Positions 888-24,633 of a DNA stretch of 32,000 nt are shown piece by piece. Under the pieces are notes generated by a model. The model saw only the letters and a program-made list of their open reading frames with translations, was not told the origin of the DNA and searched no databases. This DNA is from an archaeon (GTDB lineage: Archaea; Nanobdellota; Nanobdellia; Pacearchaeales; GW2011-AR1): the NCBI GenBank assembly GCA_043811855.1, contig JBDRMT010000004.1:973-32972 (forward strand), written 5' to 3'. The position numbers and the translations under genes are program-made. The stretch's first letter is position 1. Each line of letters starts with the position of its first letter.

Positions 888-1988
888 CTATTGGTTGTAA
901 AGCTCTAATTCTCCATTAACAATCTTTACAGAATACATAACAGGATTAATTTCTCCATTAGATTGAATATCTACTTTTCCATTTAAGCTGTCAAATGTTT
1001 TGAGATTGATTATGTTTTGAGCAATTGCTTCTCCATTTAACTTTTGTCCATTAGTTGCTTTAGCAACTAATCTTATTATGTCATATCCAAAATCAGCTCC
1101 TAAAGAAGGGTCCTTGTTATAAGTTTCTTTATAATTATTTTTAAACTCAGAATCCTGCATTAAAAATAGAGCAGCAGATGTATAGACTCCATCTGCTGAA
1201 GCTTGTTTTCTTGTTGATTCAGCTGAAAGAACTGAAGAAGATTCATATAAATCAGCATCTATCTGCAGTTCATTAAATTCTTCTACAATGTTAATTCCTT
1301 CTATTGGTGTTGAGCTTACAAACATAATCATTTCTGGATTTTTAGATTTAATTTTAGATAGTTGAGTTTTAAATTCAGTAGTTCCAGGGTTAAAATTTTC
1401 TTCAGCTACAATATCTATTTGTTTTTCTTCAGCACGTTTTTTAATATGATCTGAAACAGAAACTCCATATTCATCATTAATATACAATAATCCCATTGTA
1501 TTGTAATCTCCTATATTTATATTATTAAAATGAGAGTCTGCATATGCTTTTTCATCTACATAAAATCTAAATGCATAAGGGCTTTCATCAGCAACTCCTT
1601 TTGCTGCAACAATGGTCATAATTAAAGGGATTTTATCATTATCAACTAATGATATAATAGGAATACTAACCCTACTAAAAGCAGAAACAACAACATCAAC
1701 ATCTTTTAATTTTAGACTTTGATATGCTGAAATAGCTTCTTTTGAATCTGCTTTACTATCTTCATAAATAAATTTTATATTAATTCCTTCTTGAGATAAT
1801 TCTTGTTGTGCAATTTCCATACCATTTTTAATTGATTCTCCCCACACAGATGCTCCTCCTGTCAAAGGGAGTATTGCTCCAATAGTTAGGGTTTCAGAAT
1901 TTGTTTTGGGCATAAGAGCTATTACTAAAACAATTATAACAATTAATAGAATAACTAGAAGAATTATAAGTTTGTTCTTGTTTTTCAT
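888..1988 (-). CDS. LivJ-type ABC substrate-binding protein, membrane-anchored (class A, MPK... linker)
   Basis: 366 aa. It has an N-terminal hydrophobic anchor followed by LTIGAILPLTGGASVWGE and INIKFIYEDSKADSKEA, typical of Leu/Ile/Val-binding-protein family receptors. ATG confirmed at 1988-1986. Confidence 0.85.
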   Translation of the reverse strand: MKNKNKLIILLVILLIVIIVLVIALMPKTNSETLTIGAILPLTGGASVWGESIKNGMEIAQQELSQEGINIKFIYEDSKADSKEAISAYQSLKLKDVDVVVSAFSRVSIPIISLVDNDKIPLIMTIVAAKGVADESPYAFRFYVDEKAYADSHFNNINIGDYNTMGLLYINDEYGVSVSDHIKKRAEEKQIDIVAEENFNPGTTEFKTQLSKIKSKNPEMIMFVSSTPIEGINIVEEFNELQIDADLYESSSVLSAESTRKQASADGVYTSAALFLMQDSEFKNNYKETYNKDPSLGADFGYDIIRLVAKATNGQKLNGEAIAQNIINLKTFDSLNGKVDIQSNGEINPVMYSVKIVNGELELYNQ

Positions 1989-2018
1989 GGATAATAGAGG
2001 AATGAGTGGTTTAAAAAA

Positions 2019-3092
2019 TTAATTGATTAAAACAAGTTGGCCCTCTTTGACCAGGTATATTCTCTCAACTCTGTCAAGACTTCCTGAAGGTCCAATGACT
2101 TCTACTAGTCCTTGCTGTAAGTTATTAGGATTAATTTTATATGCATTTTCAATTGTCTTAAGACCATCATATCCAAAAGATACAAGAGTAATATCAATTG
2201 GCTCTTCACCAAATTTTTCAAAATATTTTTGTTTTAAAACATTAACATTCTCAACATAAATGTTTGTGAAGATAATACCTTCTGCTGCATTTCCAGATGC
2301 ATCAATTACATCTTGTATAATTGAATCTCCAGCTAAGATCTGTGCATCAATTCCTAATTCTCTTTTTTGGGTTATAAAATCTGCAATGACTGGAGGGACC
2401 AAAGGAGCATAAATTGCATCAACATTTTTATTTTTAATTTTTAAAAGAGCTGTTCTATAATCTCTTTCATCAGGATTATAAGTTTCATGAATTACAATCT
2501 CTCCTCCTAAGGTAACAAATTTATTCATAAAAGCTTTTGAAATTATCTCAGACCAAACGTCTTTATGAGATATAACTGCAATTTTTCTTAATTTTAATTC
2601 ATTAAAGGCAAATTCTGCCATTTTTTCTCCAGATTTCTCTGTTGAAAACCCGGTGCTAAACAGATTATCAGATTCATAAATAAAATTTGTACTATCCCAT
2701 ACAACAAGCAAGGGAATTTTTTTATTATTGAAAATCGGAGCAATAGGTTTTGCTACCTCAATCATTGTAGTTAAACCAACATCAATATTATCAATGTTTG
2801 TTAACTTATTTGCAGAATTAATAGCTGCAATACTGTTAAAACTTTCTTCATCTTCATAAATAACTTTAATATCTAAATATGATTCATCTAAAGCTAGTTT
2901 TATTCCCCTACTAACTTCCTGACCAATATAACTATAATCTCCTGATAAAGGCAAGATTGCTCCAACAACTAAATCTTTATTATTTTTAATACTAAATCCT
3001 GTCATTATAAAAGTATTAACTAAAATTAACAACATTACTCCTAGTATTGCTATAATAACAATTATTTTTATTGTATTATTTTTGTTTTCCAT
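2019..3092 (-). CDS. LivJ-type ABC substrate-binding protein, membrane-anchored (class B, FSIKNNKD linker); module 1
   Basis: 357 aa. TM anchor, then TGFSIKNNKDLVVGAILPLSGDYSYIGQE. Divergent from the TrmB gene at 3172. Confidence 0.85.
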   Translation of the reverse strand: MENKNNTIKIIVIIAILGVMLLILVNTFIMTGFSIKNNKDLVVGAILPLSGDYSYIGQEVSRGIKLALDESYLDIKVIYEDEESFNSIAAINSANKLTNIDNIDVGLTTMIEVAKPIAPIFNNKKIPLLVVWDSTNFIYESDNLFSTGFSTEKSGEKMAEFAFNELKLRKIAVISHKDVWSEIISKAFMNKFVTLGGEIVIHETYNPDERDYRTALLKIKNKNVDAIYAPLVPPVIADFITQKRELGIDAQILAGDSIIQDVIDASGNAAEGIIFTNIYVENVNVLKQKYFEKFGEEPIDITLVSFGYDGLKTIENAYKINPNNLQQGLVEVIGPSGSLDRVERIYLVKEGQLVLIN

Positions 3093-3126
3093 AACAAAAA
3101 CTTAATAGAAAGATTTATATATTTAG

Positions 3127-3146
3127 TTAGTATGATATCATACTAA
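3127..3146. promoter_or_regulatory. 20-bp perfect palindrome TTAGTATGATATCATACTAA between back-to-back TATA-like boxes; candidate TrmB operator
   Basis: I read it directly and it is its own reverse complement. It lies between TATA-like gatttatatattt (3112-3124, about 26 nt from the minus-strand ATG at 3092) and ctaatataaatg (3143-3154, about 23 nt from the ATG at 3172). Confidence 0.5.
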
Positions 3147-3171
3147 TATAAATGATAATTTGATAAAAAAT

Positions 3172-3894
3172 ATGAAAAACATATTAAGACAAATTGGGCT
3201 AACAGATTATGAAGCAGAAGTTTACATAGTATTGCTTGCACACGGCCAATTGTCTGCTTATGAATTAGCAGAAAAAGCAGGATTATACAGACAGGTAACT
3301 TATGACACATTAAAAAGGCTTCAAGAAAAAGCATTTGTAAGCTCAGTAACTAAAGGAAAAACAAAGCTCTTTAGGGCTTTGGATCCTAAATTAATTCTTG
3401 AAATATTAAATGAAAAAATAGATAATTTTAAGCAAGTTCTTCCAGAATTATCAAACCTTCAAAAACAATCTTCTGATAAAATTATTGTTGAAACTTACAA
3501 AGGTAAAAATGTCATGAGACTTGCATTTAGAGATATAATAAACCAATTAAAAAACAAAGGGGGGGAGGTCTTATGCACTGCTGTAGATGAAAATGTTCCA
3601 TTTACAGATTATGAAATTATCTGTGGACAATATGAAAGAGATATGATAAGATATAAGATTAAAGAAAGAATTATAATCAAACAAGGAGCAGAAGGCGTAT
3701 TTAAGAAAGGAACCTCTAAATATAAAAATATATCTAAAGAATATTTTAATGAAAACCCAGTCCAGATATATGGAAATAATGTTCATACAATAATCTGGGG
3801 TAATCCAGATTATTTAATAATTATAAGAAGTAAAGAAGTTGCTGAAAGTTATAGAAAGCAATTTGAGTTTATGTGGAAGCATGCAAGGGCTTGA
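3172..3894 (+). CDS. TrmB-family transcriptional regulator (wHTH + C-terminal domain), module 1
   Basis: MKNILRQIGLTDYEAEVYIVLLAHGQLSAYELAEKAGLYRQVTYDTLKRLQEKAFV matches the TrmB N-terminal wHTH pattern. The ORF-track start at 3160 is TTG, so I prefer the ATG at 3172. Confidence 0.85.
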   Translation: MKNILRQIGLTDYEAEVYIVLLAHGQLSAYELAEKAGLYRQVTYDTLKRLQEKAFVSSVTKGKTKLFRALDPKLILEILNEKIDNFKQVLPELSNLQKQSSDKIIVETYKGKNVMRLAFRDIINQLKNKGGEVLCTAVDENVPFTDYEIICGQYERDMIRYKIKERIIIKQGAEGVFKKGTSKYKNISKEYFNENPVQIYGNNVHTIIWGNPDYLIIIRSKEVAESYRKQFEFMWKHARA

Positions 3895-4305
3895 TCACAT
3901 TACAACATTAATACTCTTTATATTTAAAAATTCTTTATCAAAAGTTATTAAATCTCTTATTTTATAAATATCCATATAAGCAATTATTATACAATCTGTA
4001 AAGCTAAATTTGGTTTGTTTTTGGTTTGAAAAAACTTCCCAAGCTTTATTAAAAGTATCTTCATTAATATGAGTAACTCCTATTGTTGATATGATATCAT
4101 TTCCTATTATTTTAACTTTATTAATATCTTTTAATAATCTTAAACAAACACCTATAACTTCATCAAAAATATGATCTAAAACAATAAAATTGTCTGAATA
4201 ATCTCTTATTTTTTCAGATAATTCTACTGCTTTTTTATGATGAACATCATCATCATTAAAATACGCTATTAAAAAATTTGCATCAAATAGTATCATTTTA
4301 TTCAT
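3895..4305 (-). CDS. vapC: PIN-domain toxin (VapC-like)
   Basis: ILFDANFLIAYFNDDD...VLDHIFDEV...FSFTDCIIIAYM...LITFDKEF shows the acidic PIN residues in the usual order. The ORF-track N-terminal extension (to 4422) overlaps the antitoxin gene. ATGs at 4305 or 4296 fit the 4298 stop of the upstream gene. Confidence 0.8.
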   Translation of the reverse strand: MNKMILFDANFLIAYFNDDDVHHKKAVELSEKIRDYSDNFIVLDHIFDEVIGVCLRLLKDINKVKIIGNDIISTIGVTHINEDTFNKAWEVFSNQKQTKFSFTDCIIIAYMDIYKIRDLITFDKEFLNIKSINVVM

Positions 4306-4546
4306 AAAGTATTTTATCAATTTCTTCACTAGCCCTTTCAGTTCCAGGACCCCAACTAAAGGGTTTAACTTGTAAAAATTTCTTTTTACTTTTATTCTTA
4401 ATTTTCTGTTTTTCTTTTTCAATATATAATTTCATTGCTAAAGTCAATGCATCACCTAGTTTTAGTCTTTGTTCAACTGATAAAGATCTAAATTTATTAT
4501 AAACTTCTTCATCAATTTCTCTAACTCCTATAAATGTTTTTCCCAT
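4298..4546 (-). CDS. Small antitoxin-like protein (VapB-type partner of the PIN toxin)
   Basis: 82 aa, immediately upstream of and overlapping or abutting the PIN gene. Its size, position and charged C-terminal half are typical of type II antitoxins. Confidence 0.6.
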   Translation of the reverse strand: MGKTFIGVREIDEEVYNKFRSLSVEQRLKLGDALTLAMKLYIEKEKQKIKNKSKKKFLQVKPFSWGPGTERASEEIDKILYE

Positions 4547-4564
4547 ATGTTAAACATGTTAAAC
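4547..4564. promoter_or_regulatory. Tandem ATGTTAAAC x2 containing the 12-bp palindrome TTAACATGTTAA; candidate VapB operator
   Basis: Read directly. It abuts the antitoxin ATG (4546-4544, minus strand). Confidence 0.4.
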
Positions 4565-4598
4565 AAGTATTTAAATGTTTTTGTTAGAAGTATCTTTT

Positions 4599-5723
4599 TT
4601 AATTAATTTCAACTACCTCTCCATCTTCATATATAAACATTGATTCTTTAATACTTCTTGCAACATGATCATCATCAATTGTAATTAATCCTGCAGCTCC
4701 TTGAAAATCTTTTGTATTTTCTAGGTTTGTTTTAATACATTTTATATCTTCTTGATAATTGCATTGGTTCATAGCATTTAGTAGAACAGATGCTGAATCA
4801 TAACCTGCTGTCATAAATAAAACATTATCAGGATCTTTGTTGTGTTCTTGTTTATAAGAATCTATAAGATTTAGGAATTTTGGATTATTTTCAGAACCTT
4901 GCCAAAATGTAAATATTAAACCATTGATATTTTCTTTATTTCCTGCATTTTTTTTAAAATCTTCACTTACAAAAGTATCTATTCCTATAATTTCTGAATT
5001 AATATTTAATTCTTTTGCTTGTTTTACTATTCTTCCTGTTTCTTCCCAACCAATCATTACTATATTATCTTGGGTATTCACTTTAGTTAAAATTGATCTA
5101 AAGTCTGTTGTTGAAAAAGAATAATCTTCTTCTATTACTTGTCCTTTAAATCTTTGTTTAAATGAATTTTTTGTTAAAGTTGAAAATGCATCATCTAGAT
5201 TAGTTATTAACCCTGCACTTTCTGCATTGTTGTTATTTAAATAATCTGCAATAGCATAACCAATGCTTTCATCATATATTCCTATTGAAAAGGTATTATC
5301 ATTTAAATTAGAAAACTCTTCACTTGAATCAAGACTGTTTATTAGCAAAACATTATCTTTTTCTGCTTTATCTGTTAAAGCTAAAAATCCATCATAAGTA
5401 TTTATGAATATTATTTTAACTCCTTGAACATATACAAAATTATTATATGCATCAATTGCTTGTCTTGCATCATATTGGTCATCTTGAACAAACAGCTTTA
5501 TTTTATTATCTTGGTTAATCTCGTCTATTGCAAGTTTAATGCCATTAAGATTTTCAGTTCCAACAACAGCTCCTTCTCCTGTTAAAGGTCCTATAAATCC
5601 TATTTTAATTGTATCTTTATTATCTTTAATAGCAAATTGTGTTATTGATATCTCAAATATAGTTAAGGCTATAATTACCATTATGACTATTATTCCAATG
5701 ATTTTTATTTTTCTTCTTTCCAT
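4599..5723 (-). CDS. LivJ-type ABC substrate-binding protein, membrane-anchored (class B); module 2
   Basis: 374 aa. TM anchor, then TQFAIKDNKDTIKIGFIGPLTGEGAVVGTE. Divergent from the TrmB gene at 5839. Confidence 0.85.
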   Translation of the reverse strand: MERRKIKIIGIIVIMVIIALTIFEISITQFAIKDNKDTIKIGFIGPLTGEGAVVGTENLNGIKLAIDEINQDNKIKLFVQDDQYDARQAIDAYNNFVYVQGVKIIFINTYDGFLALTDKAEKDNVLLINSLDSSEEFSNLNDNTFSIGIYDESIGYAIADYLNNNNAESAGLITNLDDAFSTLTKNSFKQRFKGQVIEEDYSFSTTDFRSILTKVNTQDNIVMIGWEETGRIVKQAKELNINSEIIGIDTFVSEDFKKNAGNKENINGLIFTFWQGSENNPKFLNLIDSYKQEHNKDPDNVLFMTAGYDSASVLLNAMNQCNYQEDIKCIKTNLENTKDFQGAAGLITIDDDHVARSIKESMFIYEDGEVVEIN

Positions 5724-5771
5724 TTTGTTTTATTTTATGTTTATTTTGTTACTACCATTCGGTTTAATTTT

Positions 5772-5805
5772 AGTATTTATACTTATGTCGTAAGTTTTAC
5801 TACGA
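5772..5805. promoter_or_regulatory. Inverted repeats AGTAT-TT-ATACT (5772-5783) and TCGTA-N8-TACGA (5788-5805) in the divergent module 2 promoter region
   Basis: Read directly. The AGTAT/ATACT half-sites are the same as in the 3127-3146 palindrome. TATA-like aaatatttaaatagg (5805-5818) lies about 28 nt before the ATG at 5839. Confidence 0.3.
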
Positions 5806-5838
5806 AATATTTAAATAGGTGAAAATCTATTATTTTCT

Positions 5839-6567
5839 ATGAAAGAAGAACTACATGACTTTGGTTTAACAGAAAATGAAATTAAGACATACTTAGTCCT
5901 ACTAAAGTTAGGAAATGCAAATCCTTCTGAAATAGCTGAAAAAACAGGATTTTCACGTCCTTATGTATATGATATTTTAGAGAGATTATTAGAAAAAAGT
6001 ATTGTTTCTTTTGTTTTAAAGAAAAATAAAAAGTATTATTCTGCTATTGAACCTAGTTTGTTAGAGGAATTAGCAAAACAAAGACTTGATAATATTAAAA
6101 AGATTGTTCCTGATTTAGAGAAGATTAAAAAATCTATTGATGAAGAAATTAAAGTTGAGTTACATAAGGGTGAGTGGGTTTTTAAGATGTTATTAAATGA
6201 TGTTTTATCTATCTTAAAAAAGAATGATGAAGTGTTAATTTATGGCATTGATGAATTATCTATTTTTAAATTAAACAAATTCATGCCTATGTATTTGGAT
6301 CAATATTTTCATAGAATTATAAAAATGAAGACAAAAGAAAGAGTGATTATTGCAGAGGGTGGAAAAAGGTTTCCAGAAGCAACTACTACTAAATATAAAA
6401 CTCTTCCAAAGGAAATTATAGGAAATACTTCTTTTTTTCTTTATGCAAATAAAGTTGCTATTTTTCTCTGGGGAATACCTAATTATCTTATTTTAATTGA
6501 AAACAAAAGAGTTGCAGATTCATATAGAAATCAGTTTGAAATGTTATGGAAAGCTGCTAAAGCCTGA
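5839..6567 (+). CDS. TrmB-family transcriptional regulator, module 2
   Basis: LHDFGLTENEIKTYLVLLKLGNANPSEIAEKTGFSRPYVYDILERLLEKSIV is the wHTH. The C-terminal NYLILIENKRVADSYRNQFEMLWKAA is shared with the other two paralogs. Confidence 0.85.
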   Translation: MKEELHDFGLTENEIKTYLVLLKLGNANPSEIAEKTGFSRPYVYDILERLLEKSIVSFVLKKNKKYYSAIEPSLLEELAKQRLDNIKKIVPDLEKIKKSIDEEIKVELHKGEWVFKMLLNDVLSILKKNDEVLIYGIDELSIFKLNKFMPMYLDQYFHRIIKMKTKERVIIAEGGKRFPEATTTKYKTLPKEIIGNTSFFLYANKVAIFLWGIPNYLILIENKRVADSYRNQFEMLWKAAKA

Positions 6568-7689
6568 TTAATTAACCTCTACAGCTTTTCCATCCTTTAC
6601 TTTCATCATTACAAAATCTTTTGTAAATCCACCTTTACCATCACTTATTAAATGGCCTGATACTCCGTTGTATTCCTTAATATTATTAAGATATTCTTGT
6701 AAAGCTGTTGGGTTTGTTGAACCTGTTTGTTCAATAGCTTCTGCAATCATCATAACTGCATCATATGCAGAATCAGCACCTATATCAATATCTTGATTAA
6801 AAGTTTGTTTATATCTTTGTTCAAAGTCTTTTGTTGGAGTTAAAGATGTTAAAAAGATCATATCATTGTATGCTCCATCTGATGCTTCTATAATAGCATT
6901 ATCTACTGTTACTGAATACAAAGGGAGATTAACTCCTATTTCCTTAATACGTTTTACAACTGAAACTCCTATAATATATTCTCCTGAAGTTACTACAACT
7001 GCATCAATATTTTTTGCATTTTTAATTTTTAGTGCATCTGTTGTTACTTCTGTTTCTCCTGGTAAAGGTTCAACTAAAACTTCAACTTTCCCACCTAACT
7101 CTTCAAATCTACTTTTAAATGCAATTGTTTGATCTTTAACCCAGGGTTGTTGAGCACCAATCATAGCTACTTTTCTATGACCTTCTTTATAGACTAAATC
7201 TGCAAGATTTTTAGATAGTATATAGTCATGAGGCCAGGTATTGAACAAAAATTCACTATTTTCATTAAAATCTTTTACTCCTAATGAAGGTGATATCATT
7301 AAAACTTTATTATCACGAGCTAAATCTTTTAAAGCTAGTCCTGCAGGTGTCCATGTGGTTCCAATTATAATATCAATATCTTGAACATCTACTAAATTTC
7401 TAAAAGCATTAATAGCTTTTGTAGGATCTCCTTGGGAATCTTGATGATTAACAATAAGTTTTTTACTATTAATTCCTCCACCATCATTAATATCCTTAAC
7501 AGCTAAGTCTATTCCATTTTTAGAAGCAATTCCCCAACTAGAACCTTCATTAGTTAATATTAATATGCTTCCTAGATTTATTGTATCTTTATTATTTTTA
7601 ATACTAAATTCTGTTATAAAAAATGTATTTATTGCAAGCAAAGCTACAACTAAGATTGTTACTATTGCTATTATTTTTTTGTTTCCCAT
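6568..7689 (-). CDS. LivJ-type ABC substrate-binding protein, membrane-anchored (class B, divergent ligand-site motif); module 3
   Basis: 373 aa. TM anchor, then TEFSIKNNKDTINLGSILILTNEGSSWG. Its stop abuts the module 2 TrmB stop with no gap (6567/6568). Confidence 0.85.
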   Translation of the reverse strand: MGNKKIIAIVTILVVALLAINTFFITEFSIKNNKDTINLGSILILTNEGSSWGIASKNGIDLAVKDINDGGGINSKKLIVNHQDSQGDPTKAINAFRNLVDVQDIDIIIGTTWTPAGLALKDLARDNKVLMISPSLGVKDFNENSEFLFNTWPHDYILSKNLADLVYKEGHRKVAMIGAQQPWVKDQTIAFKSRFEELGGKVEVLVEPLPGETEVTTDALKIKNAKNIDAVVVTSGEYIIGVSVVKRIKEIGVNLPLYSVTVDNAIIEASDGAYNDMIFLTSLTPTKDFEQRYKQTFNQDIDIGADSAYDAVMMIAEAIEQTGSTNPTALQEYLNNIKEYNGVSGHLISDGKGGFTKDFVMMKVKDGKAVEVN

Positions 7690-7754
7690 TTTATTACCTT
7701 CTGAGAGTCATATTTAATAACTCACTCTCCAATAATGGAGGAGAAAAAGAAAGG

Positions 7755-7770
7755 TTTATATATATAAAAA
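7755..7770 (+). promoter_or_regulatory. Archaeal-type TATA (tttatatatataaaaa) preceded by AAAGG, about 25 nt upstream of the ATG at 7785
   Basis: Read directly. The same AAAGG+TTTTTATAA arrangement occurs at 17774-17787, about 25 nt before the ATG at 17808. This suggests leaderless transcripts. Confidence 0.45.
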
Positions 7771-7784
7771 ATATTATAAATATA

Positions 7785-8513
7785 ATGGATACTCAAATAC
7801 TAGAAGACTTGGGATTTACAAATGCAGAGATTAAGATATATTTGGCCTTATTAGAATTAGGTAAAACTAGTGTAGGGCCAATAATTGAAAAATCTGGATT
7901 ACAAAGCTCTGTTGTGCATACAACAATTCATAAACTAGTGAATAAAGGTTTTGTTTCTTTTATTAAAGAAGGTCAGAGAAATCATTATAGTGCAGCAAAT
8001 CCAAAGCATATTTCTAATTATATTGATGATAAAAAGAAAGAATTTGAAGAATTATTGCCTTTTCTTTTATCTAAGCAAGATAAAGCAACAAAAAAATCAG
8101 AAGTAACAACATATTTGGGAATAAAGGGAGTTAGAGAATTATTATATGAATTATTAGAAGCAGGAGGGAAAGAGCATCATACATTAGGATCTTCGATTGA
8201 TTCGGTTATGATGGGAGATGCTTTTTGGTCAAATTATCATAAAAGAAGGATTGATAAAGGGATAAAGGCAAAATTACTGTTTAATGAATCACTTAAGACT
8301 TGGACTTTAAAAAATAAGTATCCTAATGCTGAATATAAATTTACAAAATCTGGATTTGAACCTTTAACTGAGACAATAATCAGAAACGATAAAGTGGGGA
8401 TAATTATTTGGGTTACTCCTCCCCTAGGAATTTTAATTCATAATAAGGTTGCTGCTGAAAGTTATGATAAGTTCTGGAAAATTATTTGGGATAGTATTAA
8501 GAAAGTTTATTGA
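7785..8513 (+). CDS. TrmB-family transcriptional regulator, module 3
   Basis: MDTQILEDLGFTNAEIKIYLALLELGKTSVGPIIEKSGLQSSVVHTTIHKLVNKGFV. The ORF-track N-terminal 54 residues (from 7623) overlap the SBP gene and look like antisense noise. Confidence 0.85.
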   Translation: MDTQILEDLGFTNAEIKIYLALLELGKTSVGPIIEKSGLQSSVVHTTIHKLVNKGFVSFIKEGQRNHYSAANPKHISNYIDDKKKEFEELLPFLLSKQDKATKKSEVTTYLGIKGVRELLYELLEAGGKEHHTLGSSIDSVMMGDAFWSNYHKRRIDKGIKAKLLFNESLKTWTLKNKYPNAEYKFTKSGFEPLTETIIRNDKVGIIIWVTPPLGILIHNKVAAESYDKFWKIIWDSIKKVY

Positions 8514-11098: not shown

Positions 11099-11971
11099 TT
11101 ATTTTAATTGAACTTTTCCGTCAAATCCCTTTGGTTTATATATTAAAATAAGTAATAGGATTAAAGCATAAATTATTTGTCTAGCAGGTCCTACAACTGA
11201 GCTTGGGAATCCAACAAATCTTAGTATTTCTGGTAATATTATTAAGACTATTGTTGCAACTACTGTCCCTCTTAAACTTGCTAGTCCTCCAACAATAACA
11301 ATTAATAAAACAGGAATTAACTGCATTATTGTAAATGAGCTTGGATCTATAAAAGTTATATAATGTGCATATAAACTTCCTGCAATTCCTGCAAAAAAAG
11401 CAGAAACAATTAATGAAGTTGCTTTGACTTTAAATGTATTTTTTCCTAAAGTTTTAGAAGCAAGTTCATCATCTCTAACAGATTCTAATACTTTTCCAAA
11501 AGGAGATATTGTAATCTTTTTAATAACAAGATAAGAAATTATCACTATTATTATTGTGAATATAAGGAAGGCAAGATTGCTTGAAATACTAAATCCAAAA
11601 ATGCTTGGTTTTGGAATTCCAGGAAGTCCTAAGGGACCTCTTGTAAGTTCTGTCCAGTTTAGTAAAACAGCATAGACAACAAAGGAAAATCCCATAGTTG
11701 CAAGTGCAAGATAATCTCCTTTTAGCTTATGGGTGGGTATTGAAAGAAAAAAACCAAAAAGTCCTGCTATTAATCCTGCTAGTAAAAATGCTATCCAAAA
11801 TGGCCAACCTAACAAAGTTAGTAATGCAGATGTGTATGCTCCTATTCCAAAAAATGCAATATGCCCTAAATTAAGCAAGCCTGTAAATCCTATTGCTAAC
11901 TGAAGTGAAATTGCTAATATAATGTAGATTCCTATTAATATTAGTATGTGAATAAAATATGCTTCTATCAT
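11099..11971 (-). CDS. livM: Branched-chain amino acid ABC transporter permease, LivM type
   Basis: 290 aa and polytopic. GLLNLGHIAFFGIGAYTSALL is the LivM-type signature. Its ATG overlaps the upstream SBP stop (ATGA). Confidence 0.85.
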   Translation of the reverse strand: MIEAYFIHILILIGIYIILAISLQLAIGFTGLLNLGHIAFFGIGAYTSALLTLLGWPFWIAFLLAGLIAGLFGFFLSIPTHKLKGDYLALATMGFSFVVYAVLLNWTELTRGPLGLPGIPKPSIFGFSISSNLAFLIFTIIIVIISYLVIKKITISPFGKVLESVRDDELASKTLGKNTFKVKATSLIVSAFFAGIAGSLYAHYITFIDPSSFTIMQLIPVLLIVIVGGLASLRGTVVATIVLIILPEILRFVGFPSSVVGPARQIIYALILLLILIYKPKGFDGKVQLK

Positions 11972-13122
11972 TTTATATCTTTATATGGGATAATTTTCCC
12001 ATTTTTTACTATTTTAAGTTCAAATTCTCTTAATACATCTCCATTTTCATCAAAAGATATTTCACCAGATATTCCTTGATGATTTTTTATTTTAAATAGT
12101 TCATTTTTAATACATTCGGTTTTATCATCAGAACCACATTCTTCAATAGCTATTCCTATAACAATAACAGAATCATAGGCTCTTGCAGCATATATTTCTG
12201 GTTCAGTTTGATATTTCTTTTTATATTGTTCTATAAAATTTTTCATATTTTCATCGCCTGAATCAAGATTAAATTCAGGTGCTGCAATGAATAATCCTTC
12301 TGCAGCATCTCCTGCAATTGTGAATAATTCTTCTCCTCCAAAAATAGCTTGGGAACTAAATATCTGTAAATCTAAATCAAGTTCTTTGGAATTTTTAAGT
12401 AAATAACCTCCTTCTTTTGTATAAGGCGCTATATAAAGAGCATCAGGTTTGCTAGCTTTAACTTTATTAATATGAGTTCTAAAATCAACATCTCCTACAT
12501 TAAATGCTTCTGAAATTACAATCTCTCCACCAAGATTTTTAAACTCTTCTTCAAAAACTCTTTTTACTCCTTCTCCATAATCATTATTAATATATAATGA
12601 AGCAACTTTTCTTATATTAAAATCATTATACATGATTGTTGCAAGATTTTTCATTTCTAAATCAGCAGTTTCATAGGTTCTAAAAGTAAAATCTCCTTGA
12701 GTTGAATAATCTGGAGAAGCTGTTGCAACACCTATTTGAATAACCTTATCCTCATTAACTAAGGGTGTTAAAGCTATACCAACTCCTGAACCCATAGTTA
12801 TAATAATATTAACATTATTAAAATTCCTTAATTTGTTATATGAATTAATAGCTAATTTAGGATCTACTTGAGCATCTTCATATATTATCTCTATCTTTTT
12901 ACCATTAATTCCATTATTAGAATTTATTTCATCCTTTGCGAATTCAAGGCCATTCTGGATCCACTCTCCTTGATTAGCAATGCTTCCAGTTAATGCTAAA
13001 ATTGCTCCTATTTTTATAGTTTCATCTTGCTGTTTTGGTATGAAAATAAGTAAGTTTATAACTAAGATTATGATTATTAAAATAACCAACCAAGTTAATA
13101 GAGTTTTATTTTTAGATTTCAT
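11968..13122 (-). CDS. LivJ-type ABC substrate-binding protein, membrane-anchored (class A), embedded between livH and livM
   Basis: 384 aa. TM anchor, then ETIKIGAILALTGSIANQGEW and GINGKKIEIIYEDAQVDPKLA. There are ATGA overlaps at both ends (13119-13122 and 11968-11971). Confidence 0.85.
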   Translation of the reverse strand: MKSKNKTLLTWLVILIIIILVINLLIFIPKQQDETIKIGAILALTGSIANQGEWIQNGLEFAKDEINSNNGINGKKIEIIYEDAQVDPKLAINSYNKLRNFNNVNIIITMGSGVGIALTPLVNEDKVIQIGVATASPDYSTQGDFTFRTYETADLEMKNLATIMYNDFNIRKVASLYINNDYGEGVKRVFEEEFKNLGGEIVISEAFNVGDVDFRTHINKVKASKPDALYIAPYTKEGGYLLKNSKELDLDLQIFSSQAIFGGEELFTIAGDAAEGLFIAAPEFNLDSGDENMKNFIEQYKKKYQTEPEIYAARAYDSVIVIGIAIEECGSDDKTECIKNELFKIKNHQGISGEISFDENGDVLREFELKIVKNGKIIPYKDIK

Positions 13123-21645: not shown

Positions 21646-22883
21646 TTATAATGGTTTAAAGTGAAATTTTGGAACAACAACAATTCCAGATGAATCTACA
21701 TAAAGTCCATTTGCTCTATCTTCTGCATCATCATATCCTATTCTCATCCCCTTAGGAATATCATTATCCGTATCAACAAAAGCATTTCTTATTTGAACAT
21801 TTTCACCAATTGTAACCTTTGGGAATAAAACACATCTTTCTAAAAAGCTTCCTTTTCTAACTGTGACTCTTGGTGAAAAAACACACATATCCGAAGATCC
21901 TTCTATATTTCCTGGTCCTCCTGAAAATGCACTATAATTTCCATAAGGTCCTGTTCTTACTATCATAGGAGGGCTATGATCTACTAAAGTAGTAAGAACA
22001 TTTTCATCTCTAAAAGCAGTAAGATTAAATTGAGGGGTTTCAGAAACTACATCCATATTTGCTGAATGTAGTGCAGATAAAGTTCCTACATCTTCCCAAG
22101 GGCCATTTTTTTCAGGATCATAAACATGAGCATAAACCTTTTTTTATTTCTTAACATTCCAGGGATTATTTCAGAACCAAAATCATTTCCAAGACCTTTT
22201 CCATCTTTTGAGTAAGGGCTGTTAAGAGAATCAAATAAAGAGCCTGATTTAAAAACATAAATTCCCATTGATACAAAAACAAAACCTGTATCACTACCTG
22301 ACCTGTTTTTTATTTGAGGAGGATTTTCAACTTTTTCATGCAAAGCTTTTACCCTTCCACTAGGATTTACTTCCAAAACTCCAAACCTGTATTTTCCTAA
22401 CCTATCAAAATCTTCTCTTTTTAATTGTTTTTTAAGAGTAAGCACTGTTAAATCTCCCTTCATTGATTGGTGGTCTTGCAGAGGTTGTTCAAACATAAAA
22501 GTATAAAGATGGTCTCCTGCACCTATTATAACGTTTTCTGCAGCAGAATATTGTACTCTATCAATATTATGTCTTACAGAATCTGCAGTTCCTTCATACC
22601 ATCTTTTTCTTGTCCTTGTTATTTGAGGGGTTAATATTGAACAATTAGCTGTTCTTACTCTTCCAGATATATATTTTTCTTCAATATGACGTATTTGAGA
22701 AGCAACTTGATATTGAGGCAATATATAAGTTATAGAACATTGTCTTCCAATTGAGTTAACTGAAGCATCAATCAAACGAAAAGTTCCCCAAACATAAACT
22801 GCAGGTTTTGACCTGAATTTTGTCAAAGGCATTAACCTGCTTCCTTCACCTCCTGACATTATCATTCCTAAAGTTTTTTTCAT
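21646..22883 (-). pseudogene. glgC: Glucose-1-phosphate adenylyltransferase (GlgC-like) split by a frameshift at an A7 run
   Basis: The N-terminal part (22086..22883) has GMIMSGGEGSRLMPLTKFRSKPAV and WYEGTADSV. The C-terminal part (21646..22056) has left-handed beta-helix-like repeats. On the minus strand at 22137-22143, aga aat aaa aaa agg reads through to ...KVYAHVYDPEKNGPWEDVGTLSALHSANMDVV... only after a -1 shift. Confidence 0.75.
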
Positions 22884-23005: not shown

Positions 23006-23332
23006 ATGTATTATAAATCATTTAAAATGGCAGGAATGAATAAATATCATATATTTTTTGGAAATCTTTCAAATAAACTAAAAGTAGATATAATTAGTGA
23101 ATTAAAAGATAAAGAAAGATCTGTTTTAGATTTAGCTAAGAAACTTAATGTTGAGCAATCAAAACTAAGTCATGCTCTTGCATCTTTAAGATGTTGCTCT
23201 ATTGTTAATGTTAAACAGGTTGGAAAGAAAAGAGTTTATAGTCTAAATAGAGAAACTATCTTACCAATATTAAAAATGATTGATGTTCATGAAGATAAAT
23301 TCTGTAAAGAGTGTAAATCTCGATTAGGTTAA
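23006..23332 (+). CDS. ArsR/SmtB-family wHTH regulator with four Cys (CC + CxxC)
   Basis: VDIISELKDKERSVLDLAKKLNVEQSKLSHALASLRCCSIVNVKQVGKKRVYSLN is the ArsR-type HTH and wing. The C-terminus carries FCKECK. The start could be the ATG at 23006, 23027 or 23036. Confidence 0.75.
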   Translation: MYYKSFKMAGMNKYHIFFGNLSNKLKVDIISELKDKERSVLDLAKKLNVEQSKLSHALASLRCCSIVNVKQVGKKRVYSLNRETILPILKMIDVHEDKFCKECKSRLG

Positions 23333-23497
23333 AATGTTTAATAAAAAAGAAATATATTTTGATAGTGCAGGCAAACTTTCTTTAAAAGAAAGTTTGAACA
23401 AAGAAATACCTTTTTTGAAAAAAGGTAAACCAAAATCAATGCACTATCAAAGGAGTTAAAATGTTTAATAAAAAAGAAATATATTTTGATAGTGCAG
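23328..23497 (+). repeat. Perfect 43-bp direct repeat (23328-23370 and 23455-23497) bracketing an 84-bp multi-hairpin segment
   Basis: Both copies read gttaaaatgtttaataaaaaagaaatatattttgatagtgcag, which is the iscS ATG plus 12 codons. Between them are perfect palindromes at 23372-23396 (12-bp arms) and 23407-23427 (10-bp arms), and tgcactatcaaa (23440-23451), which is complementary to tttgatagtgca in both repeat copies. Confidence 0.9.
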
Positions 23498-24633
23498 CAA
23501 CAACTGTTGTTGATGAGAAGGTTGTAAAATCTATGCTTCCTTACTATACTGAAAAGTATGGAAATGCTAGTTCACAACATTTAATAGGACAGGAAGCAAA
23601 AAGAGGGATAGAAGAATCTAGGTCTGTTATTGCAAAGTCTATTTGTGGAAGTTATGATGAGATAGTTTTTACTGGTAGTGGAACTGAAGCAAATAATTTT
23701 GTTTTAAAAGGTTTATTTTTTTGGAATAAAACTCATAATACTGGTAAGAATCATATAATAACAAGCAAGATTGAACATGATTGTGTTTTAAATGCTTGCA
23801 AATGGTTAGAAAAACAAGGAGCTAGAGTTACTTATTTAGATGTTGATAAAGAAGGATTTATTGATATTGAAGATTTGAAAAAAGCTATTAGTGAAGAAAC
23901 TCTTATTGTGAGTATTATACATGGTAATAATGAAATAGGAACTATTCAAGATTTAGAAGAGATTGGAAAGATTTGTAAGGAAAATAATGTTTACTTTCAT
24001 ACAGATGCTTGTCAAAGTTATACTAAAGTTAATTTAAATGTTAAAAAGTTGAATTTAGATTTAGTAACTTTAAATGCACATAAAATTCATGGTCCTAAAG
24101 GGGTTGGTGCTTTATTTATTAGAAAAGAAATAAAAAATAAAATTGATCCTTTGCTGCATGGAGGAGGTCATGAATTTGGCTTAAGAAGTTCAACTGAAAA
24201 TGTTGCAGGAATTGTTGGATTTGCAACAGCATATAAAATAGCAAGTAATTCTGATGTAAAGAAAATGGAAAAGTTAAGAGATTATTTAATTGAAGAAATT
24301 TTAAAAATACCTAATGCAAAACTAAATGGTTCAAAGGGAGATAAAAGATTAGCTAATAATATTAATATTAGTTTTGGAAATATTGAAGGAGAAGCTTTGG
24401 GTGGATATTTAAATGCTTACGGGATATCAACTTCAACAGGAAGTGCATGTTCATCACATTCTTTAGAACCAAGTCATGTGTTGACTGCTCTTGGTTTAGA
24501 GCATGGAGATATTAACAGTTCAATAAGAATTAGTTTAAGTAAGTTTAATACAAAAGAAGAAGCTGATTATTTTTTACAAATATTAAAAAAAGTTGTTGAT
24601 AAACTTAGGAAGATGAGTCCTATTAAATTGTAA
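23461..24633 (+). CDS. iscS: Cysteine desulfurase (IscS/NifS class V aminotransferase)
   Basis: GNASSQH, TSKIEHDCV, the PLP-lysine region NAHKIHGPKGVGALF, and the active-site loop STGSACSS. SD AGGAG lies 6 nt upstream. Confidence 0.9.
   Translation: MFNKKEIYFDSAATTVVDEKVVKSMLPYYTEKYGNASSQHLIGQEAKRGIEESRSVIAKSICGSYDEIVFTGSGTEANNFVLKGLFFWNKTHNTGKNHIITSKIEHDCVLNACKWLEKQGARVTYLDVDKEGFIDIEDLKKAISEETLIVSIIHGNNEIGTIQDLEEIGKICKENNVYFHTDACQSYTKVNLNVKKLNLDLVTLNAHKIHGPKGVGALFIRKEIKNKIDPLLHGGGHEFGLRSSTENVAGIVGFATAYKIASNSDVKKMEKLRDYLIEEILKIPNAKLNGSKGDKRLANNINISFGNIEGEALGGYLNAYGISTSTGSACSSHSLEPSHVLTALGLEHGDINSSIRISLSKFNTKEEADYFLQILKKVVDKLRKMSPIKL

Follow-up and report, generated by a model that had tools for sequence, protein, structure and literature searches.

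The 32,000-nt stretch of DNA analysed here (the window) carries an intact cysteine desulfurase gene, iscS, whose start region is present twice. The first copy overlaps the end of a gene for an ArsR-family regulator, the second is the functional start of iscS, and between them lies an 84-nt insert containing two hairpins. The features of the locus are as follows.

23006-23332, + strand: gene for an ArsR-family HTH regulator (open reading frame; Pfam HTH_5, E = 6.5e-07)
23328-23370, + strand: direct repeat copy 1, a duplicate of iscS from -6 to +37
23334-23459, + strand: 41-codon upstream open reading frame (uORF), running from the duplicated ATG through both hairpins to the duplicated TAA (23457-23459)
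23358-23369, + strand: upstream copy of a2, TTTGATAGTGCA, the left flank of the core, able to pair with 23440-23451
23368-23438, + strand: core of a dispersed two-hairpin repeat family (cmsearch, 90.1 bits, E = 5e-13)
23371-23454, + strand: 84-nt insert: the repeat-family core, then the inverted copy of the flank, then 3 nt of filler
23372-23396, + strand: hairpin 1, a palindrome with 12-bp arms and one central base
23397-23406, + strand: single-stranded linker AACAAAGAAA (family consensus GAACAAAGAA)
23407-23427, + strand: hairpin 2, a palindrome with 10-bp arms and one central base, with a T6 run in the 5' arm
23428-23438, + strand: 3' tail of the core, AACCAAAATCA
23440-23451, + strand: a2', TGCACTATCAAA, the 12-nt inverted copy of the left flank
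23451-23455, + strand: AGGAG, Shine-Dalgarno-like, composed of the end of a2', the filler GGA and the first base of copy 2
23455-23497, + strand: direct repeat copy 2, the functional iscS start region
23461-24633, + strand: intact iscS/nifS-type cysteine desulfurase gene (Pfam Aminotran_5, E = 2e-86)
23485-23496, + strand: downstream copy of a2, within iscS codons 9-12, the alternative partner of a2'

The two repeat copies are identical at 43 of 43 positions, cannot be extended by one base on either side and are spaced by 84 nt. This is the sole perfect short-range repeat in the window, and its probability of arising by chance is negligible (about 0.3^43 per position pair, estimated from a GC content of 28%). 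The stop codon of the ArsR gene, TAA (23330-23332), falls within copy 1, which trails that gene as in the apparent ancestral junction of stop, 1 nt and ATG. The first 12 codons of the uORF are the first 12 codons of iscS, and its stop lies 1 nt 5' of the iscS ATG. A preliminary description of this DNA had reported the perfect repeat around the insert, the two perfect palindromes, the uORF with its shared codons and adjacent stop, and a 12-mer at 23440-23451 complementary to both repeat copies, whose downstream pairing closes a 33-nt loop (23452-23484). All of these were confirmed in the sequence, the 12-mer being the exact reverse complement of both a2 copies.

Copy 2 encodes an N-terminus, MFNKKEIYFDSAATT, which agrees with that of IscS relatives, and full-length relatives at 70-81% identity are found in metagenome-assembled genomes of Pacearchaeota and Nanoarchaeota. 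Around iscS lies a conserved gene cluster, ArsR-iscS-cupin-DUF1858-nifU. A Shine-Dalgarno-like motif precedes just 7 of the 33 long open reading frames of the window; most of its genes have no such motif and look leaderless, and iscS at copy 2 has a new AGGAG. A search with the 41-residue uORF peptide matched only itself, with no homologues; a conserved gene for a small protein is thus excluded as the identity of the element. The reading frames of the core also differ from copy to copy.

The region folds far better than shuffled sequences, both as RNA (z = -5.0) and as DNA (z = -7.0). As the preliminary description had argued, a2' can enter two mutually exclusive pairings around the Shine-Dalgarno-like motif and ATG of iscS. 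In predicted folds these are nearly isoenergetic (-42.0 versus -41.0 kcal/mol), with pair probabilities of 0.57 and 0.40. The flank would have been copied twice, one copy being inverted and the other direct, which leaves a2' with two exclusive 12-bp partners. The pairings would thus be a by-product of flank copying, rather than a device designed for Fe-S control.

Judged by its sequence and fold, the insert is one copy of a non-coding repeat family of about 70 nt, dispersed in Pacearchaeota-like DPANN archaea. The family core consists, in order, of hairpin 1, GAACAAAGAA, hairpin 2 and AAACCAAAATCA. A pattern scan of metagenomes returned 29 stretches, of which 28, on as many contigs and representing 23 independent loci, were genuine; because the pattern called for TACC in addition to an exact 19-mer, sequence conservation looks higher than it is. 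The linker columns are nearly invariant in the alignment and the 3' tail is invariant, the latter partly since the search pattern demanded it; in diverged copies recovered by a covariance model the tail is variable. The same model found a single core copy within the 32-kb window and further diverged and tandem copies on the contigs of the scan, one of which, Ga0265297_10000027, 647 kb long, bears two separate loci (L045 and L051). The core stands ahead of iscS in seven lineages. Elsewhere the downstream genes encode Cdc48, class I and class II tRNA synthetases, GluRS, RNase PH, an exonuclease, an exosome subunit, a Fer4 protein, SUI1, Pyr_excise and SecY.

The hairpins vary in a concerted way. 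Paired cells in the core amount to 95.4%, both-side changes occur in 14 of 16 pairs, and none of 500 shuffles matches this. In hairpin 1, both-side changes were seen at all seven pairs tested (38 distinct copies), while hairpin 2 covaries, for example, from TACC/GGTA to TAAC/GTTA. No Rfam 15 family matched anywhere in the window at gathering score, and with permissive thresholds the best E-value at 23300-23520 was 0.11, on the wrong strand. Literature searches covering repeats and MITEs of DPANN archaea, Pacearchaeota and Nanoarchaeota turned up neither a description of the element nor its core sequence. With no Rfam family and no paper found, the two-hairpin element appears to be previously undescribed.

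Several other identities were considered and rejected. Two specific core patterns gave no match in viral contigs. The bare 19-mer AAAAGGTAAACCAAAATCA gave 15, all of them phage-gene coding sequence for K-G-K-P-K-S and thus unrelated, which rules out a homing-endonuclease remnant. A bulge-helix-bulge intron is inconsistent with the a2/a2' stem, a perfect 12-bp helix free of bulges. An H/ACA or C/D small RNA would show box motifs, pseudouridylation pockets or an Rfam match, and none of these was present. Nor does hairpin 2 look like an outward promoter, as its commonest loop, CCGAG, is not TATA-like and the ATG may be as near as 2 nt or as far away as 70 nt.

The position of the core is far from random. 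It lies in sense orientation ahead of a gene start at 22 of the 23 loci, with the start codon usually 2-70 nt away. At 19 loci the sense core either lies in the first codons or precedes the start codon by at most 70 nt, at three it is 112-207 nt upstream, and one locus has the opposite arrangement. The preliminary description had held that a MITE-like repeat with no bias towards 5' ends would speak against its reading; the element is indeed multi-copy, but its bias towards 5' ends, in sense orientation, is very strong.

About half of the copies show a direct duplication like that in the window, in which the 5' end of the downstream gene, including its ATG, is repeated. These duplications are 10-60 nt long, starting 0-11 nt upstream of the ATG and ending at +6 to +40, and their length differs at every locus. 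In these copies an inverted copy of the left flank, 8-13 nt long, directly adjoins the 3' end of the core; one of at least 8 nt was seen in 15 of 31 copies compared with 3.6% of non-cognate flank pairs. This complementarity is present even where there is no duplication (L035), and in one old copy (L036) the repeats and a2' have drifted apart. For the window and the majority of other copies, the period cannot be divided by three and the gene restarts at the duplicated ATG; L057, with a period of 111 nt, is an in-frame insertion into a protein. Another copy, L061, lies at the 3' end of a convergent gene. At the leaderless-looking loci L038 and L043 the duplication begins with the ATG itself, and a TATA-like box lies 23-29 nt further upstream. 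A general rule that the left end of the duplication is a transcript start fits these two loci and fails for the iscS copies, where the left end lies inside an operon behind the ArsR gene and has no TATA-like box.

All seven iscS copies lie at exactly the same nucleotide. In each of these lineages, whose IscS proteins share just 68-83% identity, a2' is complementary to that lineage's own codons, with four haplotypes (GATAGT, GACAAT, GATAAT and GATAAC). GGAG(G) follows a2' in five of the seven. All seven copies, with their common site and the GGAG shared by five, could be descendants of one old, vertically inherited insertion. In that case, the long survival of the core and of matching a2 and a2' would speak for function and against neutrality.

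The core is missing from most iscS loci of the clade. In the closest IscS relative (P0002) the ArsR gene ends at 2499 and iscS starts at 2501 with no insert, and in L005, L006 and L007 iscS overlaps the ArsR gene as ATGA, uninterrupted. The 84-nt insert is missing from the iscS loci of L005-L010 and L030-L032. In L004 the core does not adjoin the ArsR gene. The same pattern is seen at Cdc48, where L064 and L065 are without the core and their relative L045 carries it flanked by a 32-37-nt repeat. Lineages with and without the element are interspersed on the IscS tree, and no near-identical pair of genomes differing solely by the insertion was found. Longer IscS homologues, such as the 434-residue P0012, do not harbour the element in frame; their extra length is an internal insertion elsewhere. 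The search for the core in relatives and for iscS loci devoid of it, as the preliminary description had envisaged, thus found both a multi-copy family and empty iscS sites.

The duplicated start of iscS is therefore probably the footprint of a small structured element which inserts into the first codons of genes with a long target duplication. This had been one of the two possibilities put forward in the preliminary description, and it gains from the 23 loci, the empty sites and the recurring anatomy of duplication plus inverted flank. The other, a riboregulator specific to iscS and Fe-S metabolism, loses ground as the same core fronts tRNA synthetase, Cdc48, SecY, SUI1 and other genes. The complementarity of the 12-mer is a general by-product, because a2' is an inverted copy of whatever sits to the left of the core.

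Comparison with relatives shows that the ancestral locus had the ArsR stop, one base and then the iscS ATG, and that the insertion point lies one base beyond codon 12 of iscS. On insertion, 43 nt (-6 to +37) were duplicated, and the left flank was copied in inverted form over 12 nt directly 3' of the core, with 3 nt of filler behind it. The duplicated stretch includes the iscS start codon together with the context ahead of it, so that the gene is restored intact behind the element. Least certain is the manner of integration, which may have involved a polymerase, template switching or end joining, with the flank copied by snap-back. The variable duplication, templated inverted flank, 3' filler and clean 5' junction point to such a process, and a classical transposase with a fixed stagger would fit these features poorly. 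The genes of the window include no transposase, reverse transcriptase or other mobility gene, and the insertion points have no common target motif. The strict sense orientation suggests either coupling to transcription or selection by translation. At the 5' junction there may be microhomology (CAACAAC in iscS against CAAAC in the core). Similarity between the 5' end of the core and its target is suggestive at iscS, L049 and L038, a small number of independent sites of which iscS provides most of the evidence.

How might an essential gene remain expressed behind such an insert? Ribosomes leaving the ArsR gene would reinitiate at the duplicated ATG and translate the uORF, passing both hairpins as well as the inverted copy of the flank. 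Having stopped at the duplicated TAA, they would reinitiate 1 nt further on at the iscS ATG, with AGGAG assisting. Such a relay would render the insertion nearly harmless, and the uORF and duplicated TAA-A-ATG junction plausibly keep iscS translated. Across the family, seven copies have their uORF stop within -1 to +4 of the real ATG (as TAAnATG or an ATGA overlap), and of the 19 units listed 10 have it between -12 and +4; in L004, L038 and L046 neither frame nor stop is conserved. Given the 5' bias of the element and the recurrence of this uORF-to-ATG relay, the element may have a general role in translation.

A more far-reaching formulation can be put forward tentatively. The family may represent an archaeal genome parasite or module of a class not recognised before, a double hairpin of about 70 nt that integrates in sense into the first codons of expressed genes. 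Integration would restore the gene start by means of a long variable duplication and form a stem out of an inverted copy of the target. If so, it would stand either for an integration mechanism coupled to transcription or RNA and undescribed in prokaryotes, or else for a domesticated 5' module that sets the translation of housekeeping genes across DPANN archaea.

A functional interpretation goes further and regards the core as a conserved cis-acting RNA leader of many housekeeping genes, spread once by duplication and since kept by selection. The three-way junction formed by the a2/a2' stem and the two hairpins would, together with the uORF, control translation initiation or mRNA fate, and the iscS copy would be a working regulator, not a tolerated insertion. 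The extreme sense and start-codon bias, the compensatory changes that keep the hairpins and the near-invariance of the single-stranded linkers would all be expected of such a leader; however, the nearest relatives lack the core at iscS and Cdc48, and its presence on the IscS tree is patchy. That seven iscS lineages keep a2' matched to their own codons in four haplotypes could likewise be a sign of selection, but this complementarity arises at insertion by construction, even without duplication as in L035, and it has drifted, along with the repeats, in the old copy L036. The clustering of uORF stops at the real ATG has to be set against L004, L038 and L046, where frame and stop are not kept. 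The GGAG in the filler of five of the seven iscS copies and the energetic balance of the two conformers also accord with regulation. Copies of very different age on single contigs, tandem arrays, the position of L061 at a convergent 3' end and the in-frame L057 do not, and overall this interpretation seems rather unlikely.

It is less likely still that the element moves through an RNA intermediate, in which case a small structured RNA would recombine with, or undergo reverse transcription at, the 5' ends of transcribed genes or abundant mRNAs. Jumps between templates would then account for the duplication of variable length, the inverted copy of the flank and the filler. Copies strictly in sense relative to their target genes, targets that are mostly highly expressed housekeeping genes, and long variable duplications with an untidy 3' junction and possible 5' microhomology are all compatible with this scheme. 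Diversity-generating retroelement reverse transcriptases are common in DPANN archaea; in the window, to which the screen for mobility genes was confined, no reverse transcriptase lies near the copy. Although the duplications of L038 and L043 start at an ATG preceded by a TATA-like box, that of iscS begins within an operon where there is no such box, and its left end is therefore unlikely to be the 5' end of a transcript. There is moreover no poly-A or other hallmark of a retroelement, and the core matches no known small RNA.

A dedicated riboswitch-like leader of iscS, linked to Fe-S metabolism or to ArsR, was suggested by the position of the insert between regulator and desulfurase in a conserved cluster and by the alternative pairings around the Shine-Dalgarno-like motif and ATG. 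This is very improbable, and is already contradicted by the distribution of the core, which precedes at least 20 unrelated genes, does not adjoin the ArsR gene in L004, and is absent from most iscS loci of the clade. Neither a conserved junction resembling a ligand pocket nor an Rfam match was seen.

Finally, there is next to no chance that the duplication is an assembly or sequencing artefact, even though a 43-nt repeat exceeds common k-mer sizes: homologous structures with lineage-specific sequence are found in NCBI, JGI and ENA assemblies of many samples, and dozens of unrelated contigs show the same architecture. The ENA contig L001 (megahit, k141) is identical to the window over 6.8 kb and crosses the duplication unchanged, and a Logan contig from run SRR27458547 ends at window position 23357, these two assemblies possibly deriving from shared reads. 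The Logan contig ends there because a k=31 graph must branch on entering the 43-nt repeat. The worry raised in the preliminary description, that the duplication might collapse on re-assembly, is thus allayed, one assembly spanning the structure and the other breaking where a real repeat predicts.

Small non-autonomous palindromic repeats are well known, among them MITEs, Correia/NEMIS, ERIC and Rickettsia palindromic elements (PMC10969869). Like these, the element is short, non-coding, multi-copy and strongly folding, is scattered in compact genomes and can enter transcripts. MITEs are small, non-coding and multi-copy, and the core, about 70 nt long and present on 28 metagenome contigs, is all three. 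Unlike those of MITEs, its ends, (G/A)CAAAC... and ...AAAATCA, are not complementary, so that there are no element-encoded terminal inverted repeats; the terminal complementarity is instead copied from each target and differs from copy to copy. Its target duplication is variable, at 10-60 nt, rather than short and fixed. L057 resembles the Rickettsia palindromic elements in being in frame within a protein, whereas other copies mostly do not. The near-exclusive sense orientation at gene 5' ends, with regeneration of the start codon, sets the family apart from known palindromic repeats, and the review lists no characterised elements in DPANN archaea (PMC10969869).

Restriction-modification units in bacteria have been reported to insert with long, variable target duplications, leaving repeats of 46-423 bp around a gene cargo of kilobases (PMC2853133). 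Shared with this class are long variable direct repeats, a single-copy empty site in relatives, the lack of an evident transposase or integrase, and repeats that permit both amplification to tandem arrays and precise loss. The class is recognised by repeats of more than 30 bp and an empty site; the repeats here are 43 nt in the window, with empty sites in P0002 and L005-L007, and 32-37 nt at L045, with empty sites in L064 and L065. The cargo is different, being a 70-nt hairpin module (a non-coding insert of 70-84 nt), and across the family the repeats are 10-60 nt. The survey of that class includes no archaeal case and describes neither an inverted flank copy nor a bias towards gene 5' ends (PMC2853133).

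A further parallel is offered by mitochondrial double-hairpin elements. These occur in the mitochondrial genomes of fungi. Double-hairpin or repetitive hairpin elements have also been described in other mitochondrial genomes, for example those of sponges (PMC2800124). They too are tiny two-hairpin units in compact AT-rich genomes, inferred to be mobile with no known enzyme. Their sequence is unrelated, however, and their host different; they are mostly intergenic, and duplication of gene starts has not been reported for them.

The junctions themselves call to mind DNA repair. Alternative end joining of the polymerase theta type produces templated insertions by snap-back and loop-out synthesis. 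The short inverted and direct copies of adjacent flank and the few filler bases would be features in common; templated insertion of this type belongs to eukaryotes and break repair and is not known as a route of integration for a repeat family, and the analysis brought no such polymerase to light. Elements derived from IS200/IS605 have subterminal hairpins at both ends and insert 3' of a fixed tetra- or pentanucleotide with no target duplication. The long duplications and the lack of a common target motif at the insertion points exclude them here. As regards translation, termination-reinitiation coupling at adjacent or overlapping stop and start codons (TAAnATG, ATGA) is general in prokaryotic operons, and the uORF stop at or within a few nt of the main start resembles it. 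The junction differs in that it was made by an insertion-linked duplication of the ArsR-iscS junction, rather than by operon evolution.

The genomes of DPANN archaea are tiny and gene-dense, and mobile elements are thought to be scarce in them. Here a repeat family is tolerated in the first codons of essential genes, including those for IscS, tRNA synthetases, Cdc48, SecY and SUI1. These genes survive because the insertion brings its own repair in the form of a duplicated start, and selfish or regulatory DNA would thereby have a novel means of holding out in streamlined genomes. The combination of variable duplication, templated inverted flank and sense orientation may offer a way into a so far uncharacterised pathway of integration or repair in uncultivated archaea. 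Through expansion, contraction or precise excision, the direct repeats could also serve as a ready-made reversible switch at gene 5' ends. The element has consequences for annotation too, namely spurious hypothetical-protein uORFs, mis-called N-termini, breaks in short-k assemblies at gene starts and in-frame insertions; the uORF of the window is itself annotated by gene callers as a hypothetical protein.

The start of iscS is present twice in the window, as a perfect direct repeat whose two copies are separated by an insert, and this insert belongs to a dispersed repeat family. The features of the region are as follows.

23006-23332: ArsR-family gene (ORF table, Pfam)
23328-23370 and 23455-23497: direct repeat, two copies, identity 43/43, abrupt ends on both sides
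Between the repeat copies: 84-nt insert containing the palindromes and the 12-mer
23334-23459: 41-codon upstream ORF, the uORF (ORF table)
23372-23396: palindrome 1, 25 nt, 12-bp arms
23407-23427: palindrome 2, 21 nt, 10-bp arms
23440-23451: 12-mer TGCACTATCAAA, exact reverse complement of 23358-23369 and 23485-23496
23461-24633: iscS (ORF table, Pfam)

The preliminary description had reported the 43-nt repeat, the 84-nt insert, the two palindromes, the complementarity of the 12-mer and the uORF between the ArsR-family gene and iscS, and all are confirmed at these coordinates. The repeat is the sole perfect short-range repeat in the whole window. The region folds far better than shuffled sequences, both as RNA (z = -5.0) and as DNA (z = -7.0). 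The mutually exclusive pairings that had been proposed for the 12-mer were compared by RNA folding and are nearly isoenergetic, at -42.0 vs -41.0 kcal/mol, with pair probabilities of 0.57 and 0.40. The uORF is carried as a real gene in NCBI (hypothetical protein ABIH37_00230); its peptide has no homologue in a collection of 5.8 billion proteins.

An assembly artefact is ruled out as the source of the duplication by comparative evidence, namely homologous structures elsewhere, whatever the origin of the assembly reads. An ENA k141 contig matches the window over 6.8 kb and spans the structure, duplication included, and the 41-aa ORF was also predicted on it by the gene caller. A Logan contig under a separate accession, which may share reads with the other assemblies, ends at window position 23357. 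This is the end of the last 31-mer still holding a unique base to the left of the repeat, and a stop there is as expected where a k=31 graph meets a real 43-nt repeat.

The window has a GC content of 28%, and its best IscS matches (70-81% identity) are in MAGs labelled Pacearchaeota, Nanoarchaeota or "archaeon", where the cluster ArsR-iscS-cupin-DUF1858-nifU is kept. These matches assign the window to a DPANN archaeon. The relatives include iscS loci that lack the insert. In the closest (P0002, 81% identity) a single base separates the last position of the ArsR gene, 2499, from the first of iscS, 2501, giving the same TAA-A-ATG junction as at repeat copy 1 of the window. The two genes overlap as ATGA in L005, L006 and L007 (79%), and contigs L008-L010 and L030-L032 have different intergenic sequences, again with the insert absent. 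As the relatives have a single start and the N-terminus MFNKKEIYFDSAATT is native to IscS, the ancestral state is one iscS start directly behind the ArsR gene, relative to which the window has a surplus of 127 nt, made up of the insert and one 43-nt copy. Insertion is supported by a second empty-site comparison, at Cdc48, where contig L045 carries the element after codon 11; in two 86%-identical relatives, L064 and L065, with the same upstream gene, the Cdc48 start is uninterrupted.

Stop-1nt-ATG junctions or ATGA overlaps join the ArsR-family gene to iscS in several lineages. The C-terminus of its product has a conserved cysteine pair, H-E-x-K-[FY]-C-x-x-C, also found in relatives (L005, L008, L030, L031, L044). 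The protein is a candidate for redox or Fe-S sensing in the control of the cluster.

A homologous insert is found in L004, an NCBI MAG with an IscS 79% identical, at the same iscS nucleotide and with a copy of the iscS start native to that genome on either side. This site does not adjoin an ArsR gene; upstream are a hemerythrin gene and an intergenic region. Hairpin 2 carries a compensatory change from T-A to C-G, and the 12-mer, TGCATTGTCAGA, fits the GACAAT codons of L004 itself and not GATAGT. Scanning metagenomes with the pattern TACCN{7,11}AAAAGGTAAACCAAAATCA returned 29 stretches, 28 of which have the same core of about 70 nt; the remaining one, L040, was rejected as a chance match. The core is laid out as (G/A)CAAACTTTCTT-loop-AAGAAAGTTTG, then GAACAAAGAA, then TACCTTTT-loop-AAAAGGTA, then AAACCAAAATCA. 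A covariance model built from the 28 cores finds one copy in the 32-kb window and, on other contigs, more diverged or tandem copies in L060, L039, L041, L046, L053 (at 5583) and L057 (at 658); one 647-kb contig has two separate matches (L045 and L051). Across 38 distinct copies, in an alignment that had been fitted to the model, 95.4% of pair cells hold standard pairs and both sides have changed at 14 of 16 pairs, a level of pairing and covariation reached by 0 of 500 shuffles, with slid controls 22-61% paired. Rfam gave no family match, and no copy of the element was found in viral contigs. The 19-mer AAAAGGTAAACCAAAATCA does occur in 15 phage contigs (L015-L029), where it codes for K-G-K-P-K-S in repeated lysine-rich motifs; this is a coincidence of AT-rich codon usage, unrelated to the element.

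The copies share a recurrent anatomy. After tandem units, identical contigs and iscS copies are collapsed, 23 independent loci remain; at 12 of these the core lies between direct repeats of 14-60 nt, and two more have repeats of 9-10 nt. The left repeat copy extends up to the 5' edge of the core, and the right copy is located 0-41 nt past the 3' edge. The ATG of the downstream gene is nearly always part of the repeat, the repeat beginning 0-11 nt before it and ending at +6 to +40. Within one genome most repeats are perfect, despite differences between genomes in the start of a given gene; older-looking exceptions are L004 (27/28 in the aligned part) and the strongly diverged L036. A perfect inverted copy (at least 8 nt) of the left flank stands directly 3' of the core in 15 of 31 copies, vs 3.6% of non-cognate flank pairs. 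It is also seen without a long duplication in L035, where the core is right behind the stop codon of the upstream gene. Since the inverted flank copy recurs in this way, the 12-mer is a by-product of copy formation in general. The whole unit forms tandem arrays in L043 (period 131 nt), L060, L062, L039 and L041, as would be expected from unequal recombination between direct repeats, a process that would also remove a unit precisely. These arrays contain two or three units of gene start, core and inverted flank (L043:3830-4130 and L060:1120-1370, for example); some units in L039 are internally rearranged, and in L041 the 3' end of a core is mutated and appears to contain the start codon.

At 19 of the 23 loci the core is sense-oriented, with its 3' end 2-70 nt before a start codon or within the first codons; random orientation would have about half of the loci facing a gene start. 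At three others a co-oriented ORF begins 112-207 nt downstream. The single exception, L061:2640-2790, has the core where a convergent gene ends; the last six codons and stop of that gene are held in a 20-nt direct repeat, with an 8-nt inverted flank copy. Most of the genes downstream of a core have housekeeping roles: Cdc48, class I and class II tRNA synthetases, GluRS, an RNase PH exosome subunit, an RNase T-like exonuclease, a ferredoxin-like protein, SUI1, pyrimidine-dimer glycosylase and SecY. One copy (L057:41-310, period 111 nt) is in frame and gives a 37-aa insertion in a pilin-like N-terminus; the ORF reads MKTKKAQLKIQ, 32 element-encoded residues, then QLKIQEMSFMLVAV..., in the reading frame of the window uORF. 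Because the same core precedes many unrelated genes, the earlier suggestion of an Fe-S riboregulator is, as such, not supported. Instead, the dispersed family and the empty sites bear out, and generalise, the other earlier suggestion, that of a small inserted element whose target duplication is unusually long.

iscS is a target in seven lineages (the window, L004, L036, L044, L050, L055 and L063), and in all seven the element is at the same nucleotide, after the GCWG of the conserved D-[NS]-A-A-T-T motif. Five of the seven also have GGAG(G) right behind the inverted flank copy, which, together with the common site, suggests shared ancestry of at least those five. Either the iscS insertion was single and old, or the site has been struck repeatedly. 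The former accounts for the common nucleotide and GGAG(G), but IscS lineages with and without the element are intermingled and the repeats are mostly perfect, so that many losses would have to be assumed, and homogenisation of the repeats wherever the insertion was retained; L036, in which the three copies of the left flank have drifted apart, shows what happens without homogenisation. Repeated hits might be favoured by microhomology, as the right flank CAACAAC resembles the core 5' end CAAAC.

As the start codon and the sequence context ahead of it are part of the duplication, the gene would be restored on the 3' side of the insert. Among 33 long ORFs in the window, 26 lack a Shine-Dalgarno-like motif; several of the seven starts that have one belong to genes directly behind or overlapping another gene. 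In many ORFs the ATG is preceded, at about 25-32 nt, by a TATA-like box; this and the scarcity of Shine-Dalgarno-like motifs suggest that mRNAs of this genome are mostly leaderless. Ribosomes leaving the ArsR gene would encounter TAA-A-ATG twice: at the first they would open the uORF and pass through both hairpins and the inverted copy, and at the second they would arrive at the real iscS ATG, now with AGGAG 6 nt upstream. The uORF end is within -1 to +4 of the real ATG in seven copies, as TAAnATG or an ATGA overlap, and between -12 and +4 in 10 of the 19 units listed. One of the three core frames is always shut by the TAA in GGTAAACC (28 copies in the alignment of cores), and the other two are stop-free in 17/28 and 14/28 copies vs about 12% per frame in shuffles, although these statistics are modest and the iscS copies among them are not independent. 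The open frames would fit selection favouring copies that ribosomes can traverse. The T6 run in hairpin 2 might in addition serve as an archaeal oligo-T termination signal and reduce read-through into iscS.

Sequence comparison establishes the family membership, the duplication and inverted flank copy at many genes, and the empty sites in the closest relatives. More tentatively, the element may integrate by a polymerase, template-switch or end-joining process, as the variable duplication length, templated inverted copy, 0-11 nt of filler at the junction and clean 5' junction resemble products of such a route. The same features are at odds with a transposase of fixed stagger, and there is no mobility gene among the genes of the 32-kb window. 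The strict sense orientation may reflect coupling to transcription, or selection via translation. In its behaviour the element is like other small palindromic repeat elements of prokaryotes; of the defining traits of MITEs that were compared, it lacks two, terminal inverted repeats that are the same in all copies and a target duplication that is short and of fixed length. It has in common with bacterial restriction-modification gene units the signature of insertion with long, variable target duplication, in a survey of which archaeal cases were not found (PMC2853133), and the in-frame insertion in L057 is reminiscent of Rickettsia palindromic elements (PMC10969869). A bulk census found a Woesearchaeal genome rich in MITEs but described no such element (PMC11602168), and a review of prokaryotic MITEs has none characterised in DPANN (PMC10969869); neither a description of the element nor a printed core sequence was found in the literature searched. 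It is of note for targeting essential genes of streamlined archaeal genomes within their first codons, for regenerating the gene starts it enters, and for a mechanistic signature as yet unexplained.

Several other features of the window and its relatives were recorded. A glucose-1-phosphate nucleotidyltransferase-like gene (NTP_transferase and hexapeptide C-terminal domain; 21646-22883, minus strand) is split into ORFs of 265 and 136 aa, where L005 has one 405-aa gene in the same place; it may represent a frameshift pseudogene, programmed frameshifting or a sequencing error. The NifU gene of L004 (4482-5972, 496 aa) contains an intein with a LAGLIDADG domain, and several Cdc48 homologues of this clade (P0144, P0215, P0219, P0237; 1227-1261 aa) have intein domains. 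Finally, there are five paralogous periplasmic-binding-protein genes, four in 888-7689, interleaved with three TrmB-family regulator genes (region 888-8513), and a fifth at 11968-13122; the imperfect direct-repeat families D1, D2 and D4 of the window (21-34 nt) stem from these paralogues.
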